Source: a phage
Reading direction: 5' to 3' (one strand)
Sequence record: PZ583743.1
Length of the DNA: 64,000 nt
The position numbers were made by a program, and so were the translations under genes. Under the pieces are notes generated by a model. The model was not told where the DNA came from. It searched no databases and was given only the letters and a program-made list of their open reading frames with translations. Position 1 is the stretch's first letter, and every line of letters starts with the position of its first letter. Below are positions 42,315 to 53,541 of this stretch, in pieces.

Positions 42315-42322
42315 TATAAATA
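42315..42322 (+). promoter_or_regulatory. Late promoter (TATAAATA) for gene 34
   Basis: Exact TATAAATA 35 nt upstream of the gene 34 ATG. Confidence 0.6.
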
Positions 42323-42356: not shown

Positions 42357-45300
42357 ATGGCCGAGATTAAAAGAAAGTTCAGAGCAGAAGATGGTCTGGA
42401 CGCAGGTGGCGATAAAATAATCAATGTAGCTTTAGCTGATCGTACCGTAGGAACTGACGGTGTTAACGTTGATTACTTAATTCAAGAAAACACAGTTCAA
42501 CAATATGATCCAACTCGTGGATATTTAAAAGATTTTGTAATCATTTATAATAATCGTTTTTGGGCAGCAACGGATAATATTCCAAAACCTGCTGGAAGTT
42601 TTAATAGAATTCGTTGGAAAGCATTACGTACTGATGCCGTATATACAACCGTATCATCTGGACCATATCAATTAAAATCCGGAGAAGCAATTTCAGTAGA
42701 TACATCAGTTGGTAATGACATTGAGTTTAATTTACCACCTTCTCCGCTTGATGGAGAAACCGTAATAATTCAAGATATTGGTGGAAAACCTGGTATAAAT
42801 CAGGTTAAAATAAATTCTTCAAATCAGAGTATTGTTAATTTTAGAGGTGAACAAGTACGTTCAGTTCTAATGACTCATCCAAAGTCACAGATGATATTCA
42901 TTTTTAATAATCGTTTGTGGCAAATGTATGTTGCTGATTATAGCAGAGAAGCTGCGATTGTTACTCCATCGACTGCATATCAAGCACAATCTAATGATTT
43001 TATCGTGCGTAGATTTACTTCCGCTGCGCCGATTAATATTAAACTTCCGAGATTTGCTAATCATGGCGATATTATTAATTTCGTTGATTTAGATAAATTA
43101 AATCCACTTTATCATACAATTGTCACGACATATGATGAAACAACTTCAGTACAAGAAGTTGGAACTCATTCTATTGAAGGCCGTACATCGATTGACGGTT
43201 TCTTGATGTTTGACGATAATGAAAAATTATGGAGATTGTTTGACGGGGATAGTAAAGCACGTTTACGCATTATAACAACTAATTCTAATATTCGTCCAAA
43301 TGAAGAAGTTATGGTATTTGGTGCGAATAACGGAACAGCCCAAACAATTGAACTTCAGCTTCCAACCGATATTTCCATTGGTGATACTGTTAAAATTTCC
43401 ATGAATTACATGAGAAAAGGACAAACAGTTAAAATCAAAGCTGCCGGTGAAGATAAAATTGCTTCTTCAGTTCAATTGCTGCAATTCCCAAAACGCTCAG
43501 AATATCCACCTGAAGCTGAATGGGTGACTGTCCAAGAATTAGTTTTCAATGGTGAAACTAATTATGTTCCGGTTTTACAACTTGCTTATATAGAAGATTC
43601 TGACGGAAAATACTGGGTTGTACAACAAAACGTTCCAACGGTTGAAAGAGTCGATTCTTTAAATAATTCTACTAGAGCAAGATTAGGCGTAATTGCTTTA
43701 GCTACACAAGCTCAAGCTAACGTCGATTTAGAAAATTCTCCGCAAAAAGAATTAGCAATTACACCAGAAACATTAGCTAACCGTACTGCTACAGAAACTC
43801 GTAGAGGTATCGCAAGAATAGCAACTACTGCTCAAGTAAATCAGAACACTACATTCTCTTTTGCAGATGACCTTATCATCACTCCTAAAAAGCTGAATGA
43901 AAGAACTGCTACAGAAACTCGTAGAGGTGTTGCTGAAATTGCTACACAGCAAGAAACTAACGCAGGTACTGATGATACTACAATCATCACTCCTAAAAAG
44001 CTTCAAGCTCGTCAAGGTTCTGAATCATTATCTGGTATTGTAACCTTTGTATCTACCGCAGGAGCTACTCCAGCTTCTAGTCGTGAATTAAATGGTACGA
44101 ATGTTTATAATAAAAACACTAATAATTTAGTTGTTTCGCCTAAAGCTTTGGATCAGTATAAAGCTACTCCAACCCAACAAGGCGCAGTAATTTTAGCAGT
44201 TGAAAGTGAAGTAATTGCTGGACAAAGCCAAGAAGGATGGGCAAATGCGGTTGTAACGCCAGAAACGTTACATAAAAAGACATCAACTGATGCAAGAATT
44301 GGTTTAATTGAAATTGCTACACAAAGTGAAGTTAATACAGGAACTGACTATACTCGTGCAGTCACTCCTAAAACTTTAAATGACCGTAGAGCAACTGAAA
44401 GTTTAAGTGGTATAGCTGAAATTGCTACACAAGTTGAATTCGACGCAGGCGTCGACGATACTCGTATCTCTACACCATTAAAAATTAAAACCAGATTTAA
44501 TAGTACTGATCGTACTTCTGTTGTTGCTCTATCTGGATTAGTTGAATCAGGAACTCTCTGGGACCATTATACCCTTAATATTCTTGAAGCAAATGAGACA
44601 CAGCGTGGTACACTTCGTGTAGCTACACAAGTTGAAGCTGCTGCAGGAACATTGGATAATGTTCTAATAACTCCTAAAAAGCTTTTAGGTACTAAATCTA
44701 CTGAAGCACAGGAAGGCGTTATTAAAGTTGCAACTCGGTCTGAAACTGTAGCTGGAACGTCAGCAAATACTGCTGTATCTCCAAAAAATTTAAAATGGAT
44801 TGTGCAGAGTGAACCAACTTGGGCAGCAACTACTCTGATAAGAGGGTTTGTTAAAACTTCATCTGGTTCAATTACATTCGTTGGTAATGATACCGTTGGT
44901 TCAACGCAGTCATTAGAATCATATGAGAAAAATGGTTATGCAGTATCACCATATGAATTAAATCGCGTATTAGCAAATTATTTGCCATTAAAAGCAAAAG
45001 CCGTAGATAGTAATTTATTAGATGGTCTAGATTCGCTCCAGTTCATTCGTAGGGACATTGCACAAACAGTTAATGGTTCACTAACCTTAACGCAACAAAC
45101 GAATCTGAGTGCCCCTCTTGTATCATCTAGTACTGCTACGTTTGGTGGATCAGTTTCGGCAAATAGTACATTAACTATTTCTAATACTGGAACGGCAACT
45201 CGTCTGATTTTTGAAAAAGGACCTCAAACTGGGACGAACCCAGCTCAAACGATGACAGTCAGAGTGTGGGGAAATCAATTCAGCGGTGAATCGGACACAA

Positions 45301-46226
45301 CACGTTCTACCGTATTTGAAGTTAGTGATGAAACGTCTAATCACTTTTATTCTCAGCGCAATAAAGCTGGTAATATAACATTTAATATAAACGGTACAGT
45401 AACGCCGATAAATGTGAATGCTTCAGGAACATTGAATGCGAATGGCGTTGCAACATTTGGTAATTCAGTCACTGCTAATGGCGAATTTATCAGTAAATCA
45501 TCGAATGCTTTTAGAGCAATAAACGGTGATTATGGATTCTTTATTCGTAATGATGGTGCTAACACCTATTTTATGCTTACTGCATCTGGTGATCAGACCG
45601 GTGGATTTAATGGATTACGTCCTTTAACTATTAATAATGCATCTGGTCAAGTAACGATTGGTGAAAGCTTAATCATTGCCAAAGGTGCTACTATAAGTTC
45701 AGGTGGTTTAACTGTTAACTCGAGAATTCGTTCTCAGGGTACTAAAACCTCTGATTTATATACCCGTGCGCCAACATCTGATACTGTAGGATTCTGGTCA
45801 ATCGATATTAATGATTCAGCCACTTATAACCAGTTCCCGGGTTATTTTAAAATGGTTGAAAAAACTAATGAAGTTACTGGACTTCCATACTTAGAACGTG
45901 GTGAAGAAGTTAAATCTCCTGGTACATTGACTCAGTTTGGTAACACACTTGATTCACTTTACCAAGATTGGATTACTTATCCAACGACCCCAGAAGCACG
46001 TACCACTCGCTGGACACGTACATGGCAGAAAACCAAAAACTCTTGGTCAAGTTTTGTTCAGGTATTTGACGGAGGTAACCCTCCTCAACCTTCAGATATA
46101 GGAGCGATCCCATCTGATAATGGAATAATAGGTAATCTTACTATTCGTGATTTCTTGCGAATTGGTAATGTTCGCATTATTCCTGACCCAGTGAATAAAA
46201 CTGTTAAATTTGAGTGGATTGAATAA
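42357..46226 (+). CDS. 34: Long tail fibre proximal subunit gp34
   Basis: 1289 aa, same length as T4 gp34; internal repeated shaft motifs (…TETRRGIARIATTAQ… / …TETRRGVAEIATQQE…). Confidence 0.95.
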   Translation: MAEIKRKFRAEDGLDAGGDKIINVALADRTVGTDGVNVDYLIQENTVQQYDPTRGYLKDFVIIYNNRFWAATDNIPKPAGSFNRIRWKALRTDAVYTTVSSGPYQLKSGEAISVDTSVGNDIEFNLPPSPLDGETVIIQDIGGKPGINQVKINSSNQSIVNFRGEQVRSVLMTHPKSQMIFIFNNRLWQMYVADYSREAAIVTPSTAYQAQSNDFIVRRFTSAAPINIKLPRFANHGDIINFVDLDKLNPLYHTIVTTYDETTSVQEVGTHSIEGRTSIDGFLMFDDNEKLWRLFDGDSKARLRIITTNSNIRPNEEVMVFGANNGTAQTIELQLPTDISIGDTVKISMNYMRKGQTVKIKAAGEDKIASSVQLLQFPKRSEYPPEAEWVTVQELVFNGETNYVPVLQLAYIEDSDGKYWVVQQNVPTVERVDSLNNSTRARLGVIALATQAQANVDLENSPQKELAITPETLANRTATETRRGIARIATTAQVNQNTTFSFADDLIITPKKLNERTATETRRGVAEIATQQETNAGTDDTTIITPKKLQARQGSESLSGIVTFVSTAGATPASSRELNGTNVYNKNTNNLVVSPKALDQYKATPTQQGAVILAVESEVIAGQSQEGWANAVVTPETLHKKTSTDARIGLIEIATQSEVNTGTDYTRAVTPKTLNDRRATESLSGIAEIATQVEFDAGVDDTRISTPLKIKTRFNSTDRTSVVALSGLVESGTLWDHYTLNILEANETQRGTLRVATQVEAAAGTLDNVLITPKKLLGTKSTEAQEGVIKVATRSETVAGTSANTAVSPKNLKWIVQSEPTWAATTLIRGFVKTSSGSITFVGNDTVGSTQSLESYEKNGYAVSPYELNRVLANYLPLKAKAVDSNLLDGLDSLQFIRRDIAQTVNGSLTLTQQTNLSAPLVSSSTATFGGSVSANSTLTISNTGTATRLIFEKGPQTGTNPAQTMTVRVWGNQFSGESDTTRSTVFEVSDETSNHFYSQRNKAGNITFNINGTVTPINVNASGTLNANGVATFGNSVTANGEFISKSSNAFRAINGDYGFFIRNDGANTYFMLTASGDQTGGFNGLRPLTINNASGQVTIGESLIIAKGATISSGGLTVNSRIRSQGTKTSDLYTRAPTSDTVGFWSIDINDSATYNQFPGYFKMVEKTNEVTGLPYLERGEEVKSPGTLTQFGNTLDSLYQDWITYPTTPEARTTRWTRTWQKTKNSWSSFVQVFDGGNPPQPSDIGAIPSDNGIIGNLTIRDFLRIGNVRIIPDPVNKTVKFEWIE

Positions 46227-46234
46227 GAGGTATT

Positions 46235-47350
46235 ATGGAAAAATTTATGGCAGAGTTTGGACAAGGATACGTCCAAACGCCATTTTTATCGGAAAGTAAT
46301 TCAGTAAGATATAAAATAAGTATAGCGGGTTCTTGCCCGCTTTCTACAGCAGGACCGTATGTTAAATTTCAGGATAATCCTGTCGGAAATCAAACATTTA
46401 GCGCAGGTCTTCATTTAAGAGTTTTTGACCCTTCAACAGGAGCATTAGTTGATAGTAAGTCATATGCTTTTTCTACTTCAAATAATACTACATCAGCTGC
46501 TTTTGTTAGTTTCATGAATTCTTTGTCAAACAATAGACTTGTTGCTATATTAACTAGCGGAAAGGTTAATTTTCCTCCTGAAGTGGTATCTTGGTTAAGG
46601 GGAGCAGGAACTTCAGTTTTTCCATCAGATTCAGTATTGTCAAGATTTGACGTATCATATGCTGCTTTTTATACTTCTTCTAAAAGAGCTATTGCATTAG
46701 AGCATGTTAAACTAAGTAATAGAAAAAGCACAGATGATTATCAAACTATTTTAGATGTTGTATTTGATAGTTTAGAAGACGTCGGAGCTACGGGATTTCC
46801 TAAAAGAACATATGAAAGTGTCGAGCAATTTATGTCAGCGGTTGGTGGAACTAATAACGAAATTGCGCGATTGCCAACTTCAGCTGCTATAAGTAAACTA
46901 TCTGATTATAATTTAATTCCTGGTGATGTTCTTTATCTTAAAGCACAGTTATATGCTGATGCTGATTTACTTGATCTTGGAACTACAAACATATCCATTC
47001 GTTTTTATGATGCATCAAATGGATATATTTCCTCTACCCAAGCTGAGTTTACTGGGCAAGCTGGGTCTTGGGAATTAAAGGAAGATTATGTAGTTGTTCC
47101 TGAAAATGCAGTCGGATTTACTATATATGCGCAGAGAACTGCTCAAGCTGGTCAAGGCGGCATGAGGAATTTAAGCTTTTCTGAAGTATCAAGAAATGGC
47201 GGCATTTCAAAACCTGCCGAATTTGGCGTCAACGGTATTCGCGTTAATTATGTCTGTGAATCGGCTTCACCTCCAGATATAATGGTACTTCCTACACAAG
47301 CCTCTTCTAAAACTGGCAAAGTGTTTGGGCAAGAATTTAGAGAAGTTTAA
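46235..47350 (+). CDS. 35: Long tail fibre hinge protein gp35
   Basis: 371 aa; T4 gp35 length and position. Confidence 0.9.
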   Translation: MEKFMAEFGQGYVQTPFLSESNSVRYKISIAGSCPLSTAGPYVKFQDNPVGNQTFSAGLHLRVFDPSTGALVDSKSYAFSTSNNTTSAAFVSFMNSLSNNRLVAILTSGKVNFPPEVVSWLRGAGTSVFPSDSVLSRFDVSYAAFYTSSKRAIALEHVKLSNRKSTDDYQTILDVVFDSLEDVGATGFPKRTYESVEQFMSAVGGTNNEIARLPTSAAISKLSDYNLIPGDVLYLKAQLYADADLLDLGTTNISIRFYDASNGYISSTQAEFTGQAGSWELKEDYVVVPENAVGFTIYAQRTAQAGQGGMRNLSFSEVSRNGGISKPAEFGVNGIRVNYVCESASPPDIMVLPTQASSKTGKVFGQEFREV

Positions 47351-47355
47351 ACTGA

Positions 47356-47380
47356 GGGAGCCTTCGGGTTCCCTTTTTCT
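47356..47380 (+). terminator. Terminator hairpin GGGAGCCUUCGGGUUCCC + U-run after gene 35
   Basis: UUCG-loop hairpin followed by TTTTTCTTT. Confidence 0.65.
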
Positions 47381-47381
47381 T

Positions 47382-47389
47382 TATAAATA
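47382..47389 (+). promoter_or_regulatory. Late promoter (TATAAATA) for genes 36-37-38
   Basis: Exact TATAAATA 24 nt upstream of the gene 36 ATG. Confidence 0.65.
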
Positions 47390-47412
47390 ATATTAAAATA
47401 AAGGGGCATATA

Positions 47413-48063
47413 ATGGCTGATTTAAAAGTAGGTTCAACTGTGGGTGGATCTGTCATTTGGCATCAAGGAAATTTTCCATTGAATTCAGCCGGTGACGATG
47501 TACTCTACAAATCATTTAAAATATATTCAGAATATAATAAACCGCAGGCAGCTGATAACGATTTCGTTTCTAAAGCTAATGGTGGTACTTACACCGGTCC
47601 AATTACTATTAATTACGGGGTAAATAGTTATCTTCAATTAAGTAATAATGAAACCCCAATTCGAATTCGTTCTGGCGGCGGTACCGGTAATACTCTTGTA
47701 GTTGGCGGCTCTTCCGGTGGTATTAGTTTTAGACCTGCAGGTAGTGAAATCACTACTGGGCAAATTACTATTACGCCAGAAGGTTTGACAACATTTACTA
47801 GGGCTGTAACGGCTCCATCGGTAACTGTTACATCTACTCCTTCCGCAGCATCTGATGTTACTCGTAAAGATTATGTCGATGGAGCAATAAATACTGTTAC
47901 GGCAAATGCAAACTCTAGGGTATTACGCTCTGGAGATACTATGACAGGAAATTTAACTGCGCCAAACCTTTTTTCACAGAATCCTGCATCTCAACCCTCA
48001 CATGTTCCACGATTTGACCAAATCGTGATTAAGGATTCTGTTCAAGATTTCGGCTATTATTAA
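47413..48063 (+). CDS. 36: Long tail fibre proximal-distal connector gp36
   Basis: 216 aa; position between genes 35 and 37. Confidence 0.88.
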   Translation: MADLKVGSTVGGSVIWHQGNFPLNSAGDDVLYKSFKIYSEYNKPQAADNDFVSKANGGTYTGPITINYGVNSYLQLSNNETPIRIRSGGGTGNTLVVGGSSGGISFRPAGSEITTGQITITPEGLTTFTRAVTAPSVTVTSTPSAASDVTRKDYVDGAINTVTANANSRVLRSGDTMTGNLTAPNLFSQNPASQPSHVPRFDQIVIKDSVQDFGYY

Positions 48064-48071
48064 GAGGACTT

Positions 48072-51020
48072 ATGGCTACTTTAAAACAAATACAATTTAA
48101 AAGAAGCAAAACTGCAGGTCAACTTCCTGCCGCTTCAGTATTAGCCGAAGGTGAATTGGCTATTAATTTAAAAGATAAAACAATTTTCACAAAAGATGAC
48201 TCAGGCAATGTTATAGAATTAGGTTTAAAATATGGAGGAACAATTGATGGTTCTTTAACTGTTAATGGAAATATAATTGGAAATTTAACAGGTAACGCTG
48301 CAACTGCAACGAAATTAAAAACAGCACGAAAAATTAATGGTATATCCTTTGATGGGTCAAAAGATATCACGCTAACTCCATCTGACATAAATGTCAATAG
48401 CACAACATTTATAAAAAATAATGGCGAATTACCTGTTGATGCTAATTTAGATGAGTATGGGCCTGTTGAAGAATATCTTGGAGTTTGGTCGAAAGCAACT
48501 TCAACCAACGCTCAACCAGCAAATAAATTTCCAGAACAAAATGCTGTAGGTGTGCTAGAAGTATTTGTGGCCGGTCAATTTGCTGGTACTCAGAGATATA
48601 CAACTAGATACGGAAATGTTTATATTCGTTCCTTGACTGCTACATGGAACGGAGTAAATGGTCCGTGGAGTGTGTGGCGAAATATTCAATCCGGTACTCG
48701 TCCACTGTCAACAACAATTGATCTTAATGATCTAGGAGGCGCTGAACACTTTGGTTTGTGGCGAAATAGTTCAAATTCCATTGCTACCTTTGACAGAAAT
48801 TTCCCAGAAGAAGGATCGTCAGCTCAAGGACTTTTAGAAGTATATGAAGGTGGAAACTATTCTCGCACACAGAGATATACGACCAGATTTGGTGTTGTTT
48901 ATACTCGCTGTCTTACTGCTGCGTGGGATGCTTCTGCGCCTAAATGGGGACCGTGGCAACAAGTCGGTAATGTCACACCGGCGACTTTCTATGACGGAAA
49001 CCTGAATGATTTTAAAACTCCTGGGTTATATAATATTTTAGGCACTGATGCCGTTATTAATTGTCCTACAGGCGAAGGTTTACCAGCCGTTATTGTTGGT
49101 TTGCTGGAAGTTAAACAACGTGCTTCTGGCGGTGCTATTTTCCAAAAATTTACTACTGCCGGAACGGGTGAAACTACTCGCGATCGTATTTTTGAGCGCG
49201 CATATACCGGCGGTGCGTGGGGTGCATGGAACGAAGTATATACATCTTATTCTCTGCCAATTACTTTGGGTATGGGTGGTATTAAAGCTCAATTAGCGGA
49301 GTTAGATTGGCAAACCTTTGATTTTGTCCCTGGTAGTATGTTTAGCGTTCCTTTGAACAAAATAAAGAACATGCCAGCTAATATGGATTGGGGTACGATT
49401 GACGGAAACTTAATTATGTTTTCTGTTGGTCCTAGCGAGCACACCAGCACAGGACGTACTGTTCAGGTTTGGCGTGGTACTGTATCCCAGACAAACTACC
49501 GTTATTTTGTCGTTCGTGTATTCGGTAATTCAGGAAATAGAACTTGCACAGTTCGTCGCGTTGTTCTTGAAGATGGTCGCCATTCTTGGACGGCACAACA
49601 AGATTTTAGGGGCGCGGTTAATCTTTACGGTGCTACATATCTTCGTTCAAACAATAAATTAACATTAGATCCGAGTGCATATATTCAAGCACCAGCAAGC
49701 GGTTCTGGTTCTAATACTTACGCAAATCAGAATACTACTATTGCGCCATTATATCAGGCCATTGACGATTCAAATAAAAACCAGTTTGCTCCTATTGTAA
49801 AACAGAAAAACACTGTAACAAATATTACTATGGCTTCTGGTATGGATATTGCTAGTTCAGAATATCGTATCATTGCTCAAGGTGATTTATCCGCTACTGG
49901 AACTACAGCTAATGAATTAGCTACATGGCGTTTCTTGCCGTCTGGCCGATTCATGTCACAAAGCCGAGTTTATGCTGGCGCAGCATTCCTTAATACCGAT
50001 GGTAATATTGCTGGTTCAATCTGGAAGAAATATAACAATGCGACAAATTTAGATGCTGCCTTGAATACTCGCGTAGGTAAAGGCGGTGATACGATGACAG
50101 GTCGGTTAACAATCAATGCACCTAATGATTCTATCGTATTATCAACAACTGCTAGTAATTCTTTGCATATTCGCGGTGACATAGACGGGACTGGTAACTG
50201 GTATATTGGCAAGGGTGGTGCTGATAATTCGCTAGCATTTTATAGCTATGCTACTCAGGCGGCAGTACATATCACAAACAATGGTGAGATTTCGCTAAAT
50301 CCACAAAATATCGCAATGGTTAACGTTAACCGCGATCGTGTACACATTAACGGTTCTGGATGGATTGCTAGACAACCGGGTGATTGGGGCAACCAATGGC
50401 GAGTAGAAGCTCCATTATTCGTTGATCATGGTTATGTTTCACAGGATTGTTATTATCCTATTCTTAAAGCAAGAAGCGTTATAACCAATCAAGGATATAG
50501 CACCGCTGTTGACTTTGGTATGCGTCGTATTCCATCACAGTGGGGGCAAGCAATCATTCGTGTCGGATCCACGGAGGCTTCTCCTGATGCTGGACACCCA
50601 CAAGCTGTGTTTGAATTCCATCATGATGGATTCTTTTATACACCAGGAAATGGTAGCTTTAGCGATGTGTATATTCGTTCTGACTCCCGTCTCAAGATTA
50701 ATAAAGAAGAATTAGAATATGGAGCGGTCGAAAAAGTTTGCCGACTGAAAGTTTATATTTACGATAAAGTTAAGTCTATTAAAGACCGTAGTGTTATTAA
50801 ACGTGAAGTTGGTATTATTGCTCAGGACCTTGAAAAGGAATTACCGGAAGCTGTATCTAAAGTTGAAGTTGATGGATCTGATGTTCTGACAATTTCTAAC
50901 TCTGCTGTGAATGCTCTTTTAATTAAGGCTATTCAGGAAATGAGTGAAGAAATTAAAGAATTGAAAACGCCTCTCTTTACTAAAATTGTTCGCAAAATTA
51001 GTAAATATTTTAAATTCTAA
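48072..51020 (+). CDS. 37: Long tail fibre distal subunit gp37 with C-terminal intramolecular chaperone (S74-like) domain
   Basis: 982 aa; N-terminus MATLKQIQFKRSK… as in T4 gp37; C-terminal ~110 aa (…YIRSDSRLKINKEELEYGAVEK…GIIAQDLEKELPEAV…NALLIKAIQEMSEEIKELK) resembles auto-cleaving chaperone domains. Confidence 0.9.
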   Translation: MATLKQIQFKRSKTAGQLPAASVLAEGELAINLKDKTIFTKDDSGNVIELGLKYGGTIDGSLTVNGNIIGNLTGNAATATKLKTARKINGISFDGSKDITLTPSDINVNSTTFIKNNGELPVDANLDEYGPVEEYLGVWSKATSTNAQPANKFPEQNAVGVLEVFVAGQFAGTQRYTTRYGNVYIRSLTATWNGVNGPWSVWRNIQSGTRPLSTTIDLNDLGGAEHFGLWRNSSNSIATFDRNFPEEGSSAQGLLEVYEGGNYSRTQRYTTRFGVVYTRCLTAAWDASAPKWGPWQQVGNVTPATFYDGNLNDFKTPGLYNILGTDAVINCPTGEGLPAVIVGLLEVKQRASGGAIFQKFTTAGTGETTRDRIFERAYTGGAWGAWNEVYTSYSLPITLGMGGIKAQLAELDWQTFDFVPGSMFSVPLNKIKNMPANMDWGTIDGNLIMFSVGPSEHTSTGRTVQVWRGTVSQTNYRYFVVRVFGNSGNRTCTVRRVVLEDGRHSWTAQQDFRGAVNLYGATYLRSNNKLTLDPSAYIQAPASGSGSNTYANQNTTIAPLYQAIDDSNKNQFAPIVKQKNTVTNITMASGMDIASSEYRIIAQGDLSATGTTANELATWRFLPSGRFMSQSRVYAGAAFLNTDGNIAGSIWKKYNNATNLDAALNTRVGKGGDTMTGRLTINAPNDSIVLSTTASNSLHIRGDIDGTGNWYIGKGGADNSLAFYSYATQAAVHITNNGEISLNPQNIAMVNVNRDRVHINGSGWIARQPGDWGNQWRVEAPLFVDHGYVSQDCYYPILKARSVITNQGYSTAVDFGMRRIPSQWGQAIIRVGSTEASPDAGHPQAVFEFHHDGFFYTPGNGSFSDVYIRSDSRLKINKEELEYGAVEKVCRLKVYIYDKVKSIKDRSVIKREVGIIAQDLEKELPEAVSKVEVDGSDVLTISNSAVNALLIKAIQEMSEEIKELKTPLFTKIVRKISKYFKF

Positions 51021-51025
51021 CAACA

Positions 51026-51045
51026 AGGGGGAAATGCCCCCTTTG
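51026..51045 (+). terminator. Weak terminator-like hairpin after gene 37
   Basis: AGGGGG-aaatg-CCCCCT followed by TTTGG; short T-run. Confidence 0.35.
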
Positions 51046-51056
51046 GAGTATAAATT

Positions 51057-51839
51057 ATGGCAGTAGTTAGTGTTCCTGGTTGGATTGGAAGTTCAGCCGC
51101 AAATGAAACAGGGCAACGATGGATGAGTCAAGCGGCTGGTCAACTAAGATTGGGTGTTCCTTGCTGGATGAGTCAATTTTCAGGTCGCTCGCGAGAAATT
51201 ATTCATACACTTGGTGCAGACCATAACTTCAATGGTCAGTGGTTCCGTGATAGATGCTTTGAGGCAGGTAGTACACCTATAGTGTTTAATATTACAGGTG
51301 ATTTAGTATCATATTCTAAAGATGTTCCTTTATTCTTTATGTACGGAGATACACCGAATGAATATGTTCAGTTGAATATACATGGCGTAACGATGTATGG
51401 TCGTGGCGGGAATGGCGGTAGCAATAGTCCTGGATCAGCTGGGGGTCATTGTATTCAAAATGATATTGGTGGGAGACTAAGAATTAATAATGGCGGAGCT
51501 ATTGCTGGCGGTGGCGGTGGCGGTGGCGGCGGATATTATTCTCCTTTTTCACAAATGAGATTGACCTTTGGCGGTGGCGGCGGTCGTCCGTTTGGCGCTC
51601 CGGGCGGATCTATTGATATGCAATCAGGAGCAACTGCTGGTACTATTTCTGCACCAGGCTCAGGGTCTGTGAACGGTATCTATAGCGGCGGGTCTGGTGG
51701 TGAAGTTGGATCCGCAGGGGGTAGATGTAATATTCGTGGTCAAGGATATGAATACGATGGCGGAGCTGCTGGTTATGCCGTCATAGGGTCTACGCCGACA
51801 TGGCAAAACGTTGGAGCAATATATGGTCCAAGAGTATAA
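51057..51839 (+). CDS. 38: gp38 receptor-recognising adhesin (T2-type) with glycine-rich motifs
   Basis: 260 aa; poly-Gly blocks ([38 protein letters not shown]) separated by variable segments. Confidence 0.88.
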
Positions 51840-51869
51840 TTTGAATAAATATCCTTAAAAGGAGGGTCT

Positions 51870-52526
51870 ATGGCAGCACCTAGAATATCATTTTCGCCCT
51901 CTGATATTCTGTTGGGTGTTCTAGATCGCTTGTTCAAAGATAACGCTACCGGGAATGTTCTTGCTTCCCGGGTAGCTGTCGTAATTCTTTTATTTATGAT
52001 GGCGATTGTTTGGTATAGGGGAGATAGTTTCTTTGAGTACTATAAGCAATCAAAGTATGAAACATACAGTGAAATTATTGAAAAGGAAAGAAATGCACGC
52101 TTTGAATCTGTCGCCCTGGAACAACTCCAGATAGTTCATATATCATCTGAGGCAGACTTTAGTGCGGTGTATTCTTTCCGCCCTAAAAACTTAAACTATT
52201 TTGTTGATATTATAGCATATGAAGGAAAATTACCTTCAACAATAAGTGAAAAATCACTTGGAGGATATCCTGTTGATAAAACTATGGATGAATATACAGT
52301 TCATTTAAATGGACGTCATTATTATTCCAATTCAAAATTTGCTTTTTTACCAACTAAAAAGCCTACTCCCGAAATAAACTACATGTACAGTTGTCCATAT
52401 TTTAATTTGGATAATATCTATGCTGGAACAATAACCATGTACTGGTATAGAAATGATCATATAAGTAATGACCGCCTTGAATCAATATGTGCTCAGGCGG
52501 CCAGAATATTAGGAAGGGCTAAATAA
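51870..52526 (+). CDS. t: Holin T
   Basis: 218 aa; single N-terminal TM segment (VAVVILLFMMAIVWY) and large periplasmic domain; recognised as T4 T. Confidence 0.93.
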   Translation: MAAPRISFSPSDILLGVLDRLFKDNATGNVLASRVAVVILLFMMAIVWYRGDSFFEYYKQSKYETYSEIIEKERNARFESVALEQLQIVHISSEADFSAVYSFRPKNLNYFVDIIAYEGKLPSTISEKSLGGYPVDKTMDEYTVHLNGRHYYSNSKFAFLPTKKPTPEINYMYSCPYFNLDNIYAGTITMYWYRNDHISNDRLESICAQAARILGRAK

Positions 52527-52799
52527 TTATTTGTTTGTATACATCTCTAGATATCGATATACACCCTCAAAACCCTCGTTGAATTCGTCGATGAGGGTTT
52601 TCTTATCTTCTTGAGTTAATTCAGAAACAATTTTACGGAATGAATTCTGATTTAACTTTCTACCTTCATGCGTTACTCCAATCTCATTCAGAAATGCAAT
52701 AAAATTAGCACGATTCTCAACAATATCTTCTCTGGAAAATTTAATCAAAATAGACGCAACAGTAATAATTTCACGAACTGTATCAATATTTTTATTCAT
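52527..52799 (-). CDS. asiA: AsiA anti-sigma-70 factor
   Basis: 90 aa; MNKNIDTVREIITVASILIKFSRED… recognised as T4 AsiA. Confidence 0.93.
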   Translation of the reverse strand: MNKNIDTVREIITVASILIKFSREDIVENRANFIAFLNEIGVTHEGRKLNQNSFRKIVSELTQEDKKTLIDEFNEGFEGVYRYLEMYTNK

Positions 52800-52811
52800 T
52801 AACTATACCAC

Positions 52812-52964
52812 TCAATTAGTTGACTTTATTATAATATCATCAGACGCTTTATTTGTAAACTGGTCTGTGTTATTTTCTTCAAAAATTTTTTCTACGAATT
52901 CTTTGAACGACTCACGTTCCTGAGCTACATTATGCTCGATTACCTTTTCAAGATTATGACTCAT
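52812..52964 (-). CDS. Small acidic protein (50 aa), translationally coupled to arn
   Basis: Hand-translated MSHNLEKVIEHNVAQERESFKEFVEKIFEENNTDQFTNKASDDIIIKSTN*; its ATG overlaps the arn stop (ATGA); below the ORF-track cutoff. Confidence 0.45.
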   Translation of the reverse strand: MSHNLEKVIEHNVAQERESFKEFVEKIFEENNTDQFTNKASDDIIIKSTN

Positions 52965-53239
52965 TCGAAATAATCTTCAATTTCGTAATCATGGACATAA
53001 ATCATTATAGTTTTTAATACATCATCAATACTTTTTCCTGGAGCTGGAATTACGTAAAAATATCCCTCCTTTGAGTTATCTTTATAAGTTCCAATCAAGA
53101 AATCATTATTCTCGCGATGTAGTTCTTCAACTAATTCATTAACAATTGAGTGGTATAAATTTGGTAGAAACTTATATAGCTTTTCTAGAATATCAATTTT
53201 GATTGTGTATTGAACCACAGATTGAGAATCAATAATCAT
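52961..53239 (-). CDS. arn: Arn, anti-restriction nuclease (McrBC inhibitor)
   Basis: 92 aa, acidic; T4 Arn length and position next to asiA. Confidence 0.8.
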   Translation of the reverse strand: MIIDSQSVVQYTIKIDILEKLYKFLPNLYHSIVNELVEELHRENNDFLIGTYKDNSKEGYFYVIPAPGKSIDDVLKTIMIYVHDYEIEDYFE

Positions 53240-53322
53240 AGACCTTCCCCTTATGTTTCTGTTTGCGATTAGATTCTTTAAACGCTTTCTTCTTATCCTT
53301 ATGGACAGAAGCTTTATTAAAA

Positions 53323-53541
53323 TTATGTTTTGCGACTAAATTGTTCATAGTGCTGAATTACCTCTCTTAAACATTTGCATGTGAATGAAAACTTTTTAGC
53401 TACACCACATTCAAATATATGTTCTCTTAAATCACGCGTGTCAGTATATCCCATCTCAACAATAAAATGCCGTATTAGATTTTTATCTTTATCGTTGAGG
53501 GAATTAAAATAATCGGATTTTGAATTAATTTCCCTGGCCAA
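53323..53541 (-). CDS. Hypothetical Cys-containing protein (72 aa)
   Basis: ORF in the arn-motA accessory block. Confidence 0.55.
   Translation of the reverse strand: MAREINSKSDYFNSLNDKDKNLIRHFIVEMGYTDTRDLREHIFECGVAKKFSFTCKCLREVIQHYEQFSRKT

Follow-up and report, generated by a model that had tools for sequence, protein, structure and literature searches.

The adjacent genes g37 and g38 in the window analysed here (the whole 64,000-nucleotide stretch of phage DNA) very probably encode a T6-subtype module, the distal tip of a Tequatrovirus long tail fibre, consisting of a self-cleaving gp37 and a Tsx-binding gp38 (we put the probability of this reading at roughly 85%). It is carried by the genes present and their domains, by conserved motifs, by the predicted folds and by the near-identity of gp38 to adhesins of phages shown to need Tsx, and nothing found in the analysis contradicts the module architecture. 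The two ORFs occupy exactly the interval given for them in the original prediction (48072-51839) and lie in the canonical gene order g34-g35-g36-g37-g38-t; the antisense ORFs within g37 and g38 are all of 129 aa or less and were taken as spurious. The genes of the module and its neighbours are as follows.

47413..48063, + strand: g36, a 216-aa ORF (Pfam Phage_T4_gp36, 9.1e-07), the distal hinge connector joined by the gp37 N-terminus
48072-51020, + strand: g37, 982 aa, 107.3-kDa precursor, long tail fibre distal subunit
51057-51839, + strand: g38, 260 aa, 26.4 kDa, receptor-recognising adhesin
51870..52526, + strand: gene t, holin (Pfam Phage_holin_T, 1.1e-116), the downstream boundary of the module

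The proposal that gp38 is the likely adhesin is supported. The protein matches Pfam PF05268 (GP38) over residues 47-260 (1.3e-71, 241.4 bits against a cut-off of 25, profile positions 1-218 of 218), PF21721 (Gp38_N) over residues 1-41 (2.2e-19, 69.6 bits, cut-off 25) and PHROG 2056 (6.7e-112), and among PDB sequences it matches the gp38 adhesins of PP01 (9v85, 6.4e-80) and S16 (6f45_D, 2e-49). In the AlphaFold2 model (pLDDT 87.5, pTM 0.80), which is a prediction rather than a solved structure, gp38 would fold as a beta-helix plus polyglycine-II sandwich; Foldseek retrieved 9v85_C (E 8e-28, TM 0.88, rmsd 2.3 A) and 6f45_D (E 3.7e-21) with this model and nothing else below E = 1. Three tryptophans in the N-terminal domain (W9, W22 and W37) are invariant in a nine-sequence gp38 alignment that includes T2 and T6, and the role of such Trp ‘prongs’ is known from the S16 structure (PMC6851490). 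The pLDDT of this domain is low in the monomer model (41-67), as is expected because this surface would pack on the gp37 trimer.

The remainder of gp38 has the poly-Gly motifs separated by variable segments that had been noticed at the outset. Glycine makes up 33% of residues 110-260 against 10% of residues 1-109, with runs at G151-G159 and G172-G176, and column entropy across 75 homologues resolves five Gly-rich blocks, which are conserved, from four variable segments (HVS), examples being residues 172-182 (0.36 bits, conserved) and 159-171 (2.52 bits, variable). This layout is no chance pattern.

51057..51179, + strand: gp38 attachment domain at the N-terminus (residues 1-41), including the ‘prong’ tryptophans W9, W22 and W37
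51396..51836, + strand: gp38 specificity domain, with Gly-rich blocks at residues 114-121, 128-158, 172-184, 211-222 and 235-244
51420-51437, + strand: HVS1, residues 122-127
51531-51569, + strand: HVS2, residues 159-171
51609-51686, + strand: HVS3, residues 185-210
51723-51758, + strand: HVS4, residues 223-234

The layout agrees with the five-GRM/four-HVS scheme of Trojet 2011 (PMC3157838), and alignment relates it to the receptor loops A-E of PP01 (PMC12892980). The variable segments, which had been pointed to as the place to look for receptor specificity, are known specificity determinants (Trojet 2011, PMC3157838; preprint 10.64898/2026.04.02.716166).

The gp38 sequence is 95-97% identical to those of the BASEL phages WilhelmHis, Paracelsus and KarlGJung and of CM8; HVS1 and HVS2 are identical to the segments of CM8, Paracelsus and WilhelmHis, and the differences from these three in HVS3 and HVS4 are confined to S210, Y231 and either A194 or D234. 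More broadly, T6, RB3/5/14, CM8 and BASEL Bas35-37 have the same gene order, gp38 proteins 91-97% identical to this one and the same HVS1 and HVS2. Tips of the T6 subtype bind Tsx, a nucleoside channel of the Escherichia coli outer membrane. Dependence on Tsx is experimental in these relatives: it was shown with complementation for WilhelmHis (PMC8594841), is summarised for Paracelsus and KarlGJung in PMC13353012, and is reported for CM8 (receptors Tsx/HepI; preprint 10.64898/2026.04.02.716166) and for the T6-like phages RB3/5/6/7/14/27 (PMC3157838). From these relatives Tsx is predicted to be the primary receptor of the present module as well. The OmpA-type T6-like adhesin (EV240, M1, FL18, FL08) was ruled out as HVS2-4 differ; the EV240 gp38 has 35 differing positions, concentrated in these segments.

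The C-terminal region of gp37 supports the claim that the protein ends in an auto-cleaving intramolecular chaperone, with the actual cleavage assigned by homology.

50664..50678, + strand: DVYIR, residues 865-869, last strand of mature gp37 and predicted gp38 docking tip
50679..51017, + strand: intramolecular chaperone domain of 113 aa and 12.9 kDa (residues 870-982), whose SDSRLK motif holds the Ser870/Lys875 dyad

Pfam Peptidase_S74 matches residues 870-928 (E 5.5e-10, 39.8 bits against a cut-off of 22; profile positions 1-57 of 58), at the very C-terminal end of the fibre protein, and both motifs quoted in the original prediction are real and lie inside this match, SDSRLKINKEELEYGAVEK beginning at S870 and GIIAQDLEKELPEAV occupying residues 914-928. 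The sequence DVYIRSDxRLK, S870 and K875 included, is invariant in 25 homologues while the sequences upstream of it are unrelated (the homologue search, made with residues 760-982, gave mostly fragments, which limited the depth of the alignment), and six relatives show 100% identity over residues 862-941. Ser870 and Lys875 we take to be the catalytic dyad, from what is established for endoNF and T5 pb1. With a slash marking the site of cleavage, DVYIR/SDSRLK aligns with DLNVS/SDRRIKK of S16, where autoproteolysis releases a 113-aa chaperone according to PMC7917993, which cites Dunne 2018 for the cleavage site; autoproteolysis of gp37 has also been reported for T2/T6 (PMC3157838). Self-cleavage at Arg869/Ser870 is therefore predicted here, and would yield a mature gp37 of 94.4 kDa and a chaperone of 12.9 kDa. 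Structure prediction, which had been suggested as a check, gave a fold matching solved intramolecular chaperones: block-mean pLDDT is 71-91 over residues ~870-959 and 66 over 960-979, and the top Foldseek matches of this segment are all S74-type (MyRF ICA 7dc3 at 9e-5, 3gud, T5 pb1 4uw8 and endoNF 3gw6), 7dc3 being the one below E = 1e-3. Upstream of the chaperone, in a part that includes the docking surface, the monomer model is poor (pLDDT <50).

The gp37 protein matches PHROG 1699 (7.4e-204; ‘long tail fiber protein distal subunit’), and upstream of the DVYIR tip it has three further parts.

48402..49256, + strand: three tandem shaft domains of ~95 aa, R1 (residues 111-206), R2 (207-300) and R3 (301-395)
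49632..50099, + strand: swapped middle module, ~residues 521-676, located by a sliding identity profile and the break at 530-677 in the BLASTP alignment with T6
50148..50303, + strand: trimerisation region, residues 693-744 (Pfam gp37_trimer PF20744, E 2.2e-05, 24.8 bits against a cut-off of 21.7)

R1, R2 and R3 have in common the pattern G(V/L)LEV...TQ(R/K)(Y/F)TT...W..W; the local alignment of R1 with R2 scores 164, where shuffled sequences average 27.7 (z = 24), and the likeness of R3 to the other repeats is weak (z = 1.5-2.9). PHROG 4618 (‘tail collar fiber protein’) spans residues 106-325, and a search of PDB sequences with the repeat region (111-395) gave nothing meaningful (best E 0.96). 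T6 and its close relatives have gp37 proteins 89-97% identical to this one (Paracelsus 97%) with an identical cleavage motif and chaperone domain, identity to T6 gp37 itself being ~89% over residues 1-530 and 677-982, that is, outside the middle module. That module is only 8-20% identical to T6 and KarlGJung and is instead the Paracelsus/WilhelmHis variant, with 95-100% identity beyond residue 550; residues 521-550 are 70% identical to these two phages and overlap a rare 33-residue junction patch at 503-535. The closest genome, that of the Shigella phage CT01 (97.6% over 24 kb), encodes a gp38 identical bar one residue (G5S) but a different gp37 variant, which is split between two CDSs in the annotation and whose C-terminal part has just 65% identity to the window, and the g37/g38 combination seen here is therefore a recombinant mosaic. 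The exact gp37 and gp38 sequences are absent from a collection of 15 billion proteins.

Outside this group the nearest described systems include those of PP01 and S16. The gp38 of PP01 (PDB 9V85) is 67% identical and has a beta-helix and Gly-rich scaffold near-identical to our model, but the sequence and length of its receptor loops A-E are different and it binds OmpC of O157 (PMC12892980). The S16 gp37(3)-gp38 complex (PDB 6F45) has the same gp38 trio of Trp-prong attachment domain, beta-helix and polyglycine-II sandwich (PMC6851490) and the same 113-aa S74 chaperone, cut before the serine of SD(x)R(x)K (PMC7917993); however, its gp38 is 44% identical in structural alignment with loops that differ throughout, it targets Salmonella OmpC, and its gp37 shaft is unrelated save for the last strand and the chaperone. 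The chaperones of endoNF (3GW6), GA-1 (3GUD), T5 pb1 (4UW8) and MyRF ICA (7DC3) likewise lie C-terminal to a trimeric beta-helix and have the Ser/Lys dyad and a fold like the one predicted here. In those proteins release merely finishes the fibre, whereas here it would uncover a docking site for a separate adhesin, a feature in common with S16, T2 and T6.

Two readings that place the module in another subtype were weighed. If it were of the T4 type, gp37 would bear its own receptor-binding tip and gp38 would be an assembly chaperone absent from the virion. The position of g38 directly downstream of g37 and the gp37 N-terminus (79% identity over 66 aa, in the part joining gp36) are indeed as in T4, and they are all that speaks for it; as claimed beforehand, gp37 is shorter than the 1026 aa of T4 gp37, and it lacks any alignment to the T4 needle or tip in its C-terminal region, ending instead in an S74 domain that T4 gp37 does not have. 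T4 gp38 is an unrelated chaperone: the best BLASTP match to it is of E 1.9 over 12 residues, no detectable similarity, and the gp38 of the window belongs fully to the adhesin family by Pfam, PDB and Foldseek matches. Direct comparison thus refutes a T4-type gp38, the outcome that would have overturned the original prediction did not arise, and the probability of this reading is negligible. A strict T2 subtype, with T2-like loops recognising FadL and/or OmpF, is scarcely less improbable. The protein families and gene order are those of T2, and the chaperone domains of the two gp37 proteins share 42% identity. Against this, BLASTP similarity to T2 gp37 (1341 aa, longer than the gp37 here) is confined to the first 67 residues and to the chaperone domain, while gp38 is 91% identical to T6 gp38 and just 52% identical to T2 gp38, with all four variable segments different. 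As both a T2-like HVS set and a T2-like gp37 are missing, this subtype was rejected, and Tsx rather than the FadL/OmpF of T2 is the predicted receptor. Alignment with T2 and T6, also suggested at the outset, therefore places both proteins nearer T6, and the label ‘T2-type’ in the original prediction holds in its broad sense, for phages with a gp38 adhesin, but fails as a subtype.

A further reading, within the T6 subtype, concerns S210, S213 and Y231, which lie beside or in receptor loops and at which gp38 differs from the Tsx-validated alleles (together with S5 they also set it apart from T6 and its close relatives). These residues were placed by sequence alignment with the loops as defined for PP01. 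S210, unique among 75 cluster representatives, lies next to the counterpart of PP01 loop-D, S213 sits in the Gly-rich block adjoining HVS3, and Y231 aligns with Tyr230 of PP01 loop-E, which cross-links to its receptor (PMC12892980). The substitutions might therefore be functional rather than neutral, shifting or broadening the specificity of a T6-type adhesin: towards a variant (perhaps Shigella-adapted) Tsx, to an added second receptor, to OmpA, as in PST and EV240, or to an LPS-core-dependent mode, as in fPS-65, whose gp38 is 96.9% identical and which in Yersinia requires heptose of the LPS inner core (PMC7917993). Switches caused by one to three residues have been described before: the single HVS substitution Q206L takes RB68 from OmpF to OmpW (preprint 10.64898/2026.04.02.716166), and three changes in PST turn T6 specificity towards Yersinia and OmpA (PMC3157838). 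In addition, the nearest gp38 proteins, those of the Shigella flexneri phages CT01 and SF2-1, share the substitutions almost exactly. However, the T6/CM8 residues are kept at the PST-distinguishing positions Q166, M167 and G207, residue 165 is S as in CM8 where both T6 and PST have P, none of the HVS2-4 sequence of EV240 is present, and the S213/Y231 pair is widespread (155 members in cluster P0001). This suggests a neutral or fine-tuning allele of the Tsx group, and we regard a shift in specificity as unlikely.

On the T6-subtype reading, gp37 would trimerise into a beta-helical fibre, its folding nucleated by the C-terminal chaperone, after which the Ser870/Lys875 dyad would cut and the chaperone depart to expose the DVYIR tip, by homology with S16, T2/T6, T5 pb1 and endosialidase. 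One gp38 monomer would then dock on the three-fold tip (a 3:1 complex) through its N-terminal helical domain and Trp prongs, with the beta-helix and the sandwich built from the Gly-rich blocks presenting the hypervariable loops distally; as these carry the T6/CM8/BASEL allele set, they would be expected to recognise Tsx. In T-even phages, once several fibres have bound reversibly, the baseplate is triggered, the short fibres bind the LPS core and contraction ensues.

Two signals may bear on expression of the module.

47382..47389, + strand: T4-type late promoter motif TATAAATA, exact match, 24 nt upstream of g36
51024..51045, + strand: g37/g38 intercistronic hairpin (8-bp stem, -14.7 kcal/mol), with a GGAG ribosome-binding site after it

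The TATAAATA motif is a late promoter in T4, and from its position the copy at 47382 is probably where the g36-g37-g38 late transcript starts, the motif as such being no more frequent in the window than by chance (10 against 8.7 expected); ahead of it, directly after the g35 stop, is a G+C-rich hairpin plus T-run (47354-47375). The intercistronic hairpin is of modest significance (fold z = -1.9) and also occurs in Paracelsus, RB14, CT01 and T6, and in T2 the sequence is different with pairing retained (GGGCTTCGGCCC); it may have a role in RNA stability or processing. Rfam searches of 46000-53500 on both strands found no structured RNA at E <= 0.1, DNA repeats in 47400-52600 were limited to short chance-level matches, and sigma-70-like promoters were fewer than in shuffled sequence (10 against 16.8).

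The architecture, structures, cleavage and loop-based specificity have already been described for close relatives and are known biology. What the analysis adds is that both genes can be named precisely, as a gp37 with a self-cleaving chaperone and a gp38 adhesin of the T6/Tsx subtype, and that host range can be predicted in a form open to test: infection should be Tsx-dependent, with resistance expected to arise via loss of tsx. The module is also a further case of tail-fibre segments being shuffled among Tequatroviruses by mosaic exchange.

The window is a segment of a Tequatrovirus (T-even) genome; over the 24-kb stretch upstream of the receptor-recognition module the closest genome, that of Shigella phage CT01, is 97.6% identical to it, and identity over the same stretch is 95-96% for numerous T4-like phages of E. 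coli, Shigella and Yersinia. ORF calling placed the canonical long-tail-fibre gene cluster on the + strand around the module, whose predicted limits (48072-51839) are exactly those of the g37 and g38 ORFs, and Pfam confirms the identities of gp36, gp38 and holin T.

Features of the module and its surroundings
42315-42322: T4-type late promoter motif TATAAATA, 35 nt before g34
42357-46226, + strand: g34 (ORF)
46235-47350, + strand: g35 (ORF)
47382-47389: T4-type late promoter motif TATAAATA, 24 nt before g36
47413-48063, + strand: g36 (ORF; Pfam match)
48072-51020, + strand: g37 (ORF, 982 aa)
51024-51045: G+C-rich hairpin within the 36 nt that separate g37 from g38, immediately ahead of the GGAG ribosome-binding site
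51057-51839, + strand: g38 (ORF, 260 aa; Pfam match)
51870-52526, + strand: holin gene t (ORF; Pfam match)

A terminator-like hairpin with a T-run lies directly after g35 (from 47354) and is followed by the TATAAATA of g36, an arrangement that fits late transcription in two units of the T4 kind, g34-35 and g36-38. The spacer hairpin is conserved in T6-like phages, T2 having a different but still pairing sequence (GGGC-TTCG-GCCC), and its stability is only modestly above that of shuffled sequences (z = -1.9). No Rfam family was found around the module (46000-53500, both strands), no meaningful repeats in the module region (47400-52600) and, from the ORF listing, no antisense genes in the g37/g38 region. 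Residues 58-112 of the hinge protein gp35 match the Pfam family ILEI ('interleukin-like EMT inducer', a FAM3-type domain; E 5.4e-08; 33.7 bits, cut-off 27), a family whose name is surprising in a hinge protein of a phage.

The module had been described as T2-type, which holds for its architecture (a chaperone-bearing gp37 followed by an adhesin gp38) but not for the strict subtype, which is T6. Identity of gp38 is 91% to T6 gp38 and 52% to T2 gp38; for gp37, identity to the T6 protein is about 89% across residues 1-530 and 677-982, whereas likeness to T2 gp37 is limited to the termini (the first 67 residues and, at 42%, the chaperone domain). Nucleotide identity across the entire 3.77-kb module is 95.4% to BASEL phage Paracelsus and 95.1% to KEP10.

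As predicted, gp37 is shorter than its T4 counterpart (982 against 1026 aa) and, as motif and modelled fold show, ends in a domain of the auto-cleaving chaperone type. Pfam finds Peptidase_S74 ('chaperone of endosialidase') at residues 870-928 (E 5.5e-10; 39.8 bits, cut-off 22) and gp37_trimer at residues 693-744, and the C-terminus aligns with the S16 gp37 fragment co-crystallized with gp38 (6f45_A). The motif originally singled out begins at S870, within FSDVYIR/SDSRLKINKEE (slash before S870), and D-V-Y-I-R-S-D-x-R-L-K is invariant across 25 database homologues despite mutually unrelated upstream fibre sequences; among its residues are Ser and Lys, the catalytic dyad of the Peptidase_S74 family. 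An AlphaFold2 monomer of residues 760-982 was confident only for the chaperone (block-mean pLDDT 71-91 over about 870-959, then 66), low values upstream being expected when a trimeric beta-helix is modelled as a monomer, and its best structural matches were all S74-type chaperones (MyRF ICA, 7dc3, E 9e-5; also GA-1 3gud, T5 pb1 4uw8 and endoNF 3gw6). The S16 protein is reported to be cut at DLNVS/SDRRIKK, releasing 113 residues, and this site has been aligned to DVYIR/SDGRLKI of T6-like Yersinia phages (PMC7917993). By analogy, in the S16 register the cut would fall at R869/S870, giving a 113-residue chaperone and converting the 107.3-kDa precursor into products of 94.4 and 12.9 kDa.

That gp38 is an adhesin and not the T4 chaperone-only type is borne out by its matches to Pfam GP38 (1.3e-71) and Gp38_N (2.2e-19) and to both solved adhesins, the PP01 receptor-binding domain 9V85 (6.4e-80; PMC12892980) and S16 6F45_D (2e-49), together with a lack of similarity to T4 gp38 (best E 1.9). 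The glycine motifs alternating with variable segments were likewise recovered: glycine content is 33% in residues 110-260 against 10% in 1-109, and an alignment of 75 sequences gave conserved Gly-rich blocks at 114-121, 128-158 (including G151-G159), 172-184, 211-222 and 235-244 and hypervariable segments (HVS1-4) at 122-127, 159-171, 185-210 and 223-234 (column entropy, for example, 0.36 bits in 172-182 and 2.52 bits in 159-171), the five-block, four-segment scheme of Trojet 2011 (PMC3157838). Confidence in the AlphaFold2 model (pLDDT 87.5, pTM 0.80) is low solely for the N-terminal domain, a part that requires the gp37 trimer; the model can be superposed on the gp38 of PP01 (E 8e-28, TM 0.88, rmsd 2.3 A) and on that of S16 (E 3.7e-21), the structural search returning nothing else below E = 1. 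The attachment domain has its three Trp 'prongs', a role taken from the S16 structure (PMC6851490), at W9, W22 and W37. In the deposited gp38 of Shigella phage CM8 (L011 3501-4280) Leu replaces the third (W37L), yet CM8 is reported to be fully functional and Tsx-dependent; the explanation is either that one of the prongs can be lost or a sequencing error in the record.

From sequence comparison we predict, with a probability of roughly 85%, that the primary receptor is Tsx, because gp38 is nearly identical to that of Tsx-using relatives and differs from the EV240 and PST proteins. It is 95-97% identical to gp38 of Paracelsus, KarlGJung, WilhelmHis, CM8, RB14 and RB3/5, and that of CT01 differs only by G5S. 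WilhelmHis is tsx-dependent, with complementation shown (PMC8594841), Paracelsus and KarlGJung are listed as using Tsx (PMC13353012), the T6-like RB3/5/6/7/14/27 use it (PMC3157838), and CM8 was assigned Tsx/HepI by RB-TnSeq (preprint 10.64898/2026.04.02.716166). The OmpA-binding T6-like EV240 differs at 35 positions concentrated in HVS2-4, and at sites distinguishing the Yersinia/OmpA-adapted PST the window has the Tsx-group Q166, M167 and G207; S165 is shared with CM8, both T6 and PST having P. A different receptor has to be weighed, since a single HVS3 substitution can switch it (RB68 Q206L; preprint 10.64898/2026.04.02.716166), and fPS-65 (96.9% gp38 identity) requires LPS-core heptose in Yersinia (PMC7917993). 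The window differs from the Tsx-validated adhesins in having S210, S213 and Y231 and, outside the loops, S5, S42, T73 and T246. Placed by alignment to PP01 and its published loop definitions (PMC12892980), S210 adjoins loop-D and Y231 aligns with Tyr230 of loop-E, which cross-links to OmpC (PMC12892980). S213 and Y231 commonly occur together, however (155 members in cluster P0001), so a neutral or fine-tuning allele is more likely.

The gp37 protein is mosaic. Overall it is 97% identical to Paracelsus gp37, and in the middle (about residues 521-676) it carries the variant found in Paracelsus and WilhelmHis, unrelated there to T6 and KarlGJung. A 33-residue patch at the junction of two modules (503-535; 49578-49676) is unlike all close relatives; among 50,697 records only phage ZCEC15 matches it full length (92%), others matching half, and it resembles the scar of a recombination event or the contribution of a rare donor. 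CT01 carries a different gp37 variant beside its near-identical gp38; its g37 (L004 1735-4465) is annotated as two overlapping CDSs (frameshift or sequencing error). A domain of about 95 aa is tandemly duplicated in the shaft (residues 111-395, 48402-49256; R1 against R2 z = 24 relative to shuffles), with a much weaker third copy; the region has no match in Pfam or in a PDB sequence search, but a PHROG called 'tail collar fiber protein' spans it, and it may consist of knob-like or lectin-like domains. Neither gp37 nor gp38 occurs as an exact sequence in a 15-billion-protein collection. This mosaicism is ordinary tail-fibre shuffling. Observation and interpretation in the original prediction were both correct, the sole refinement being the subtype (T6/Tsx instead of T2), and as the whole system has been fully described in close relatives it is already known.
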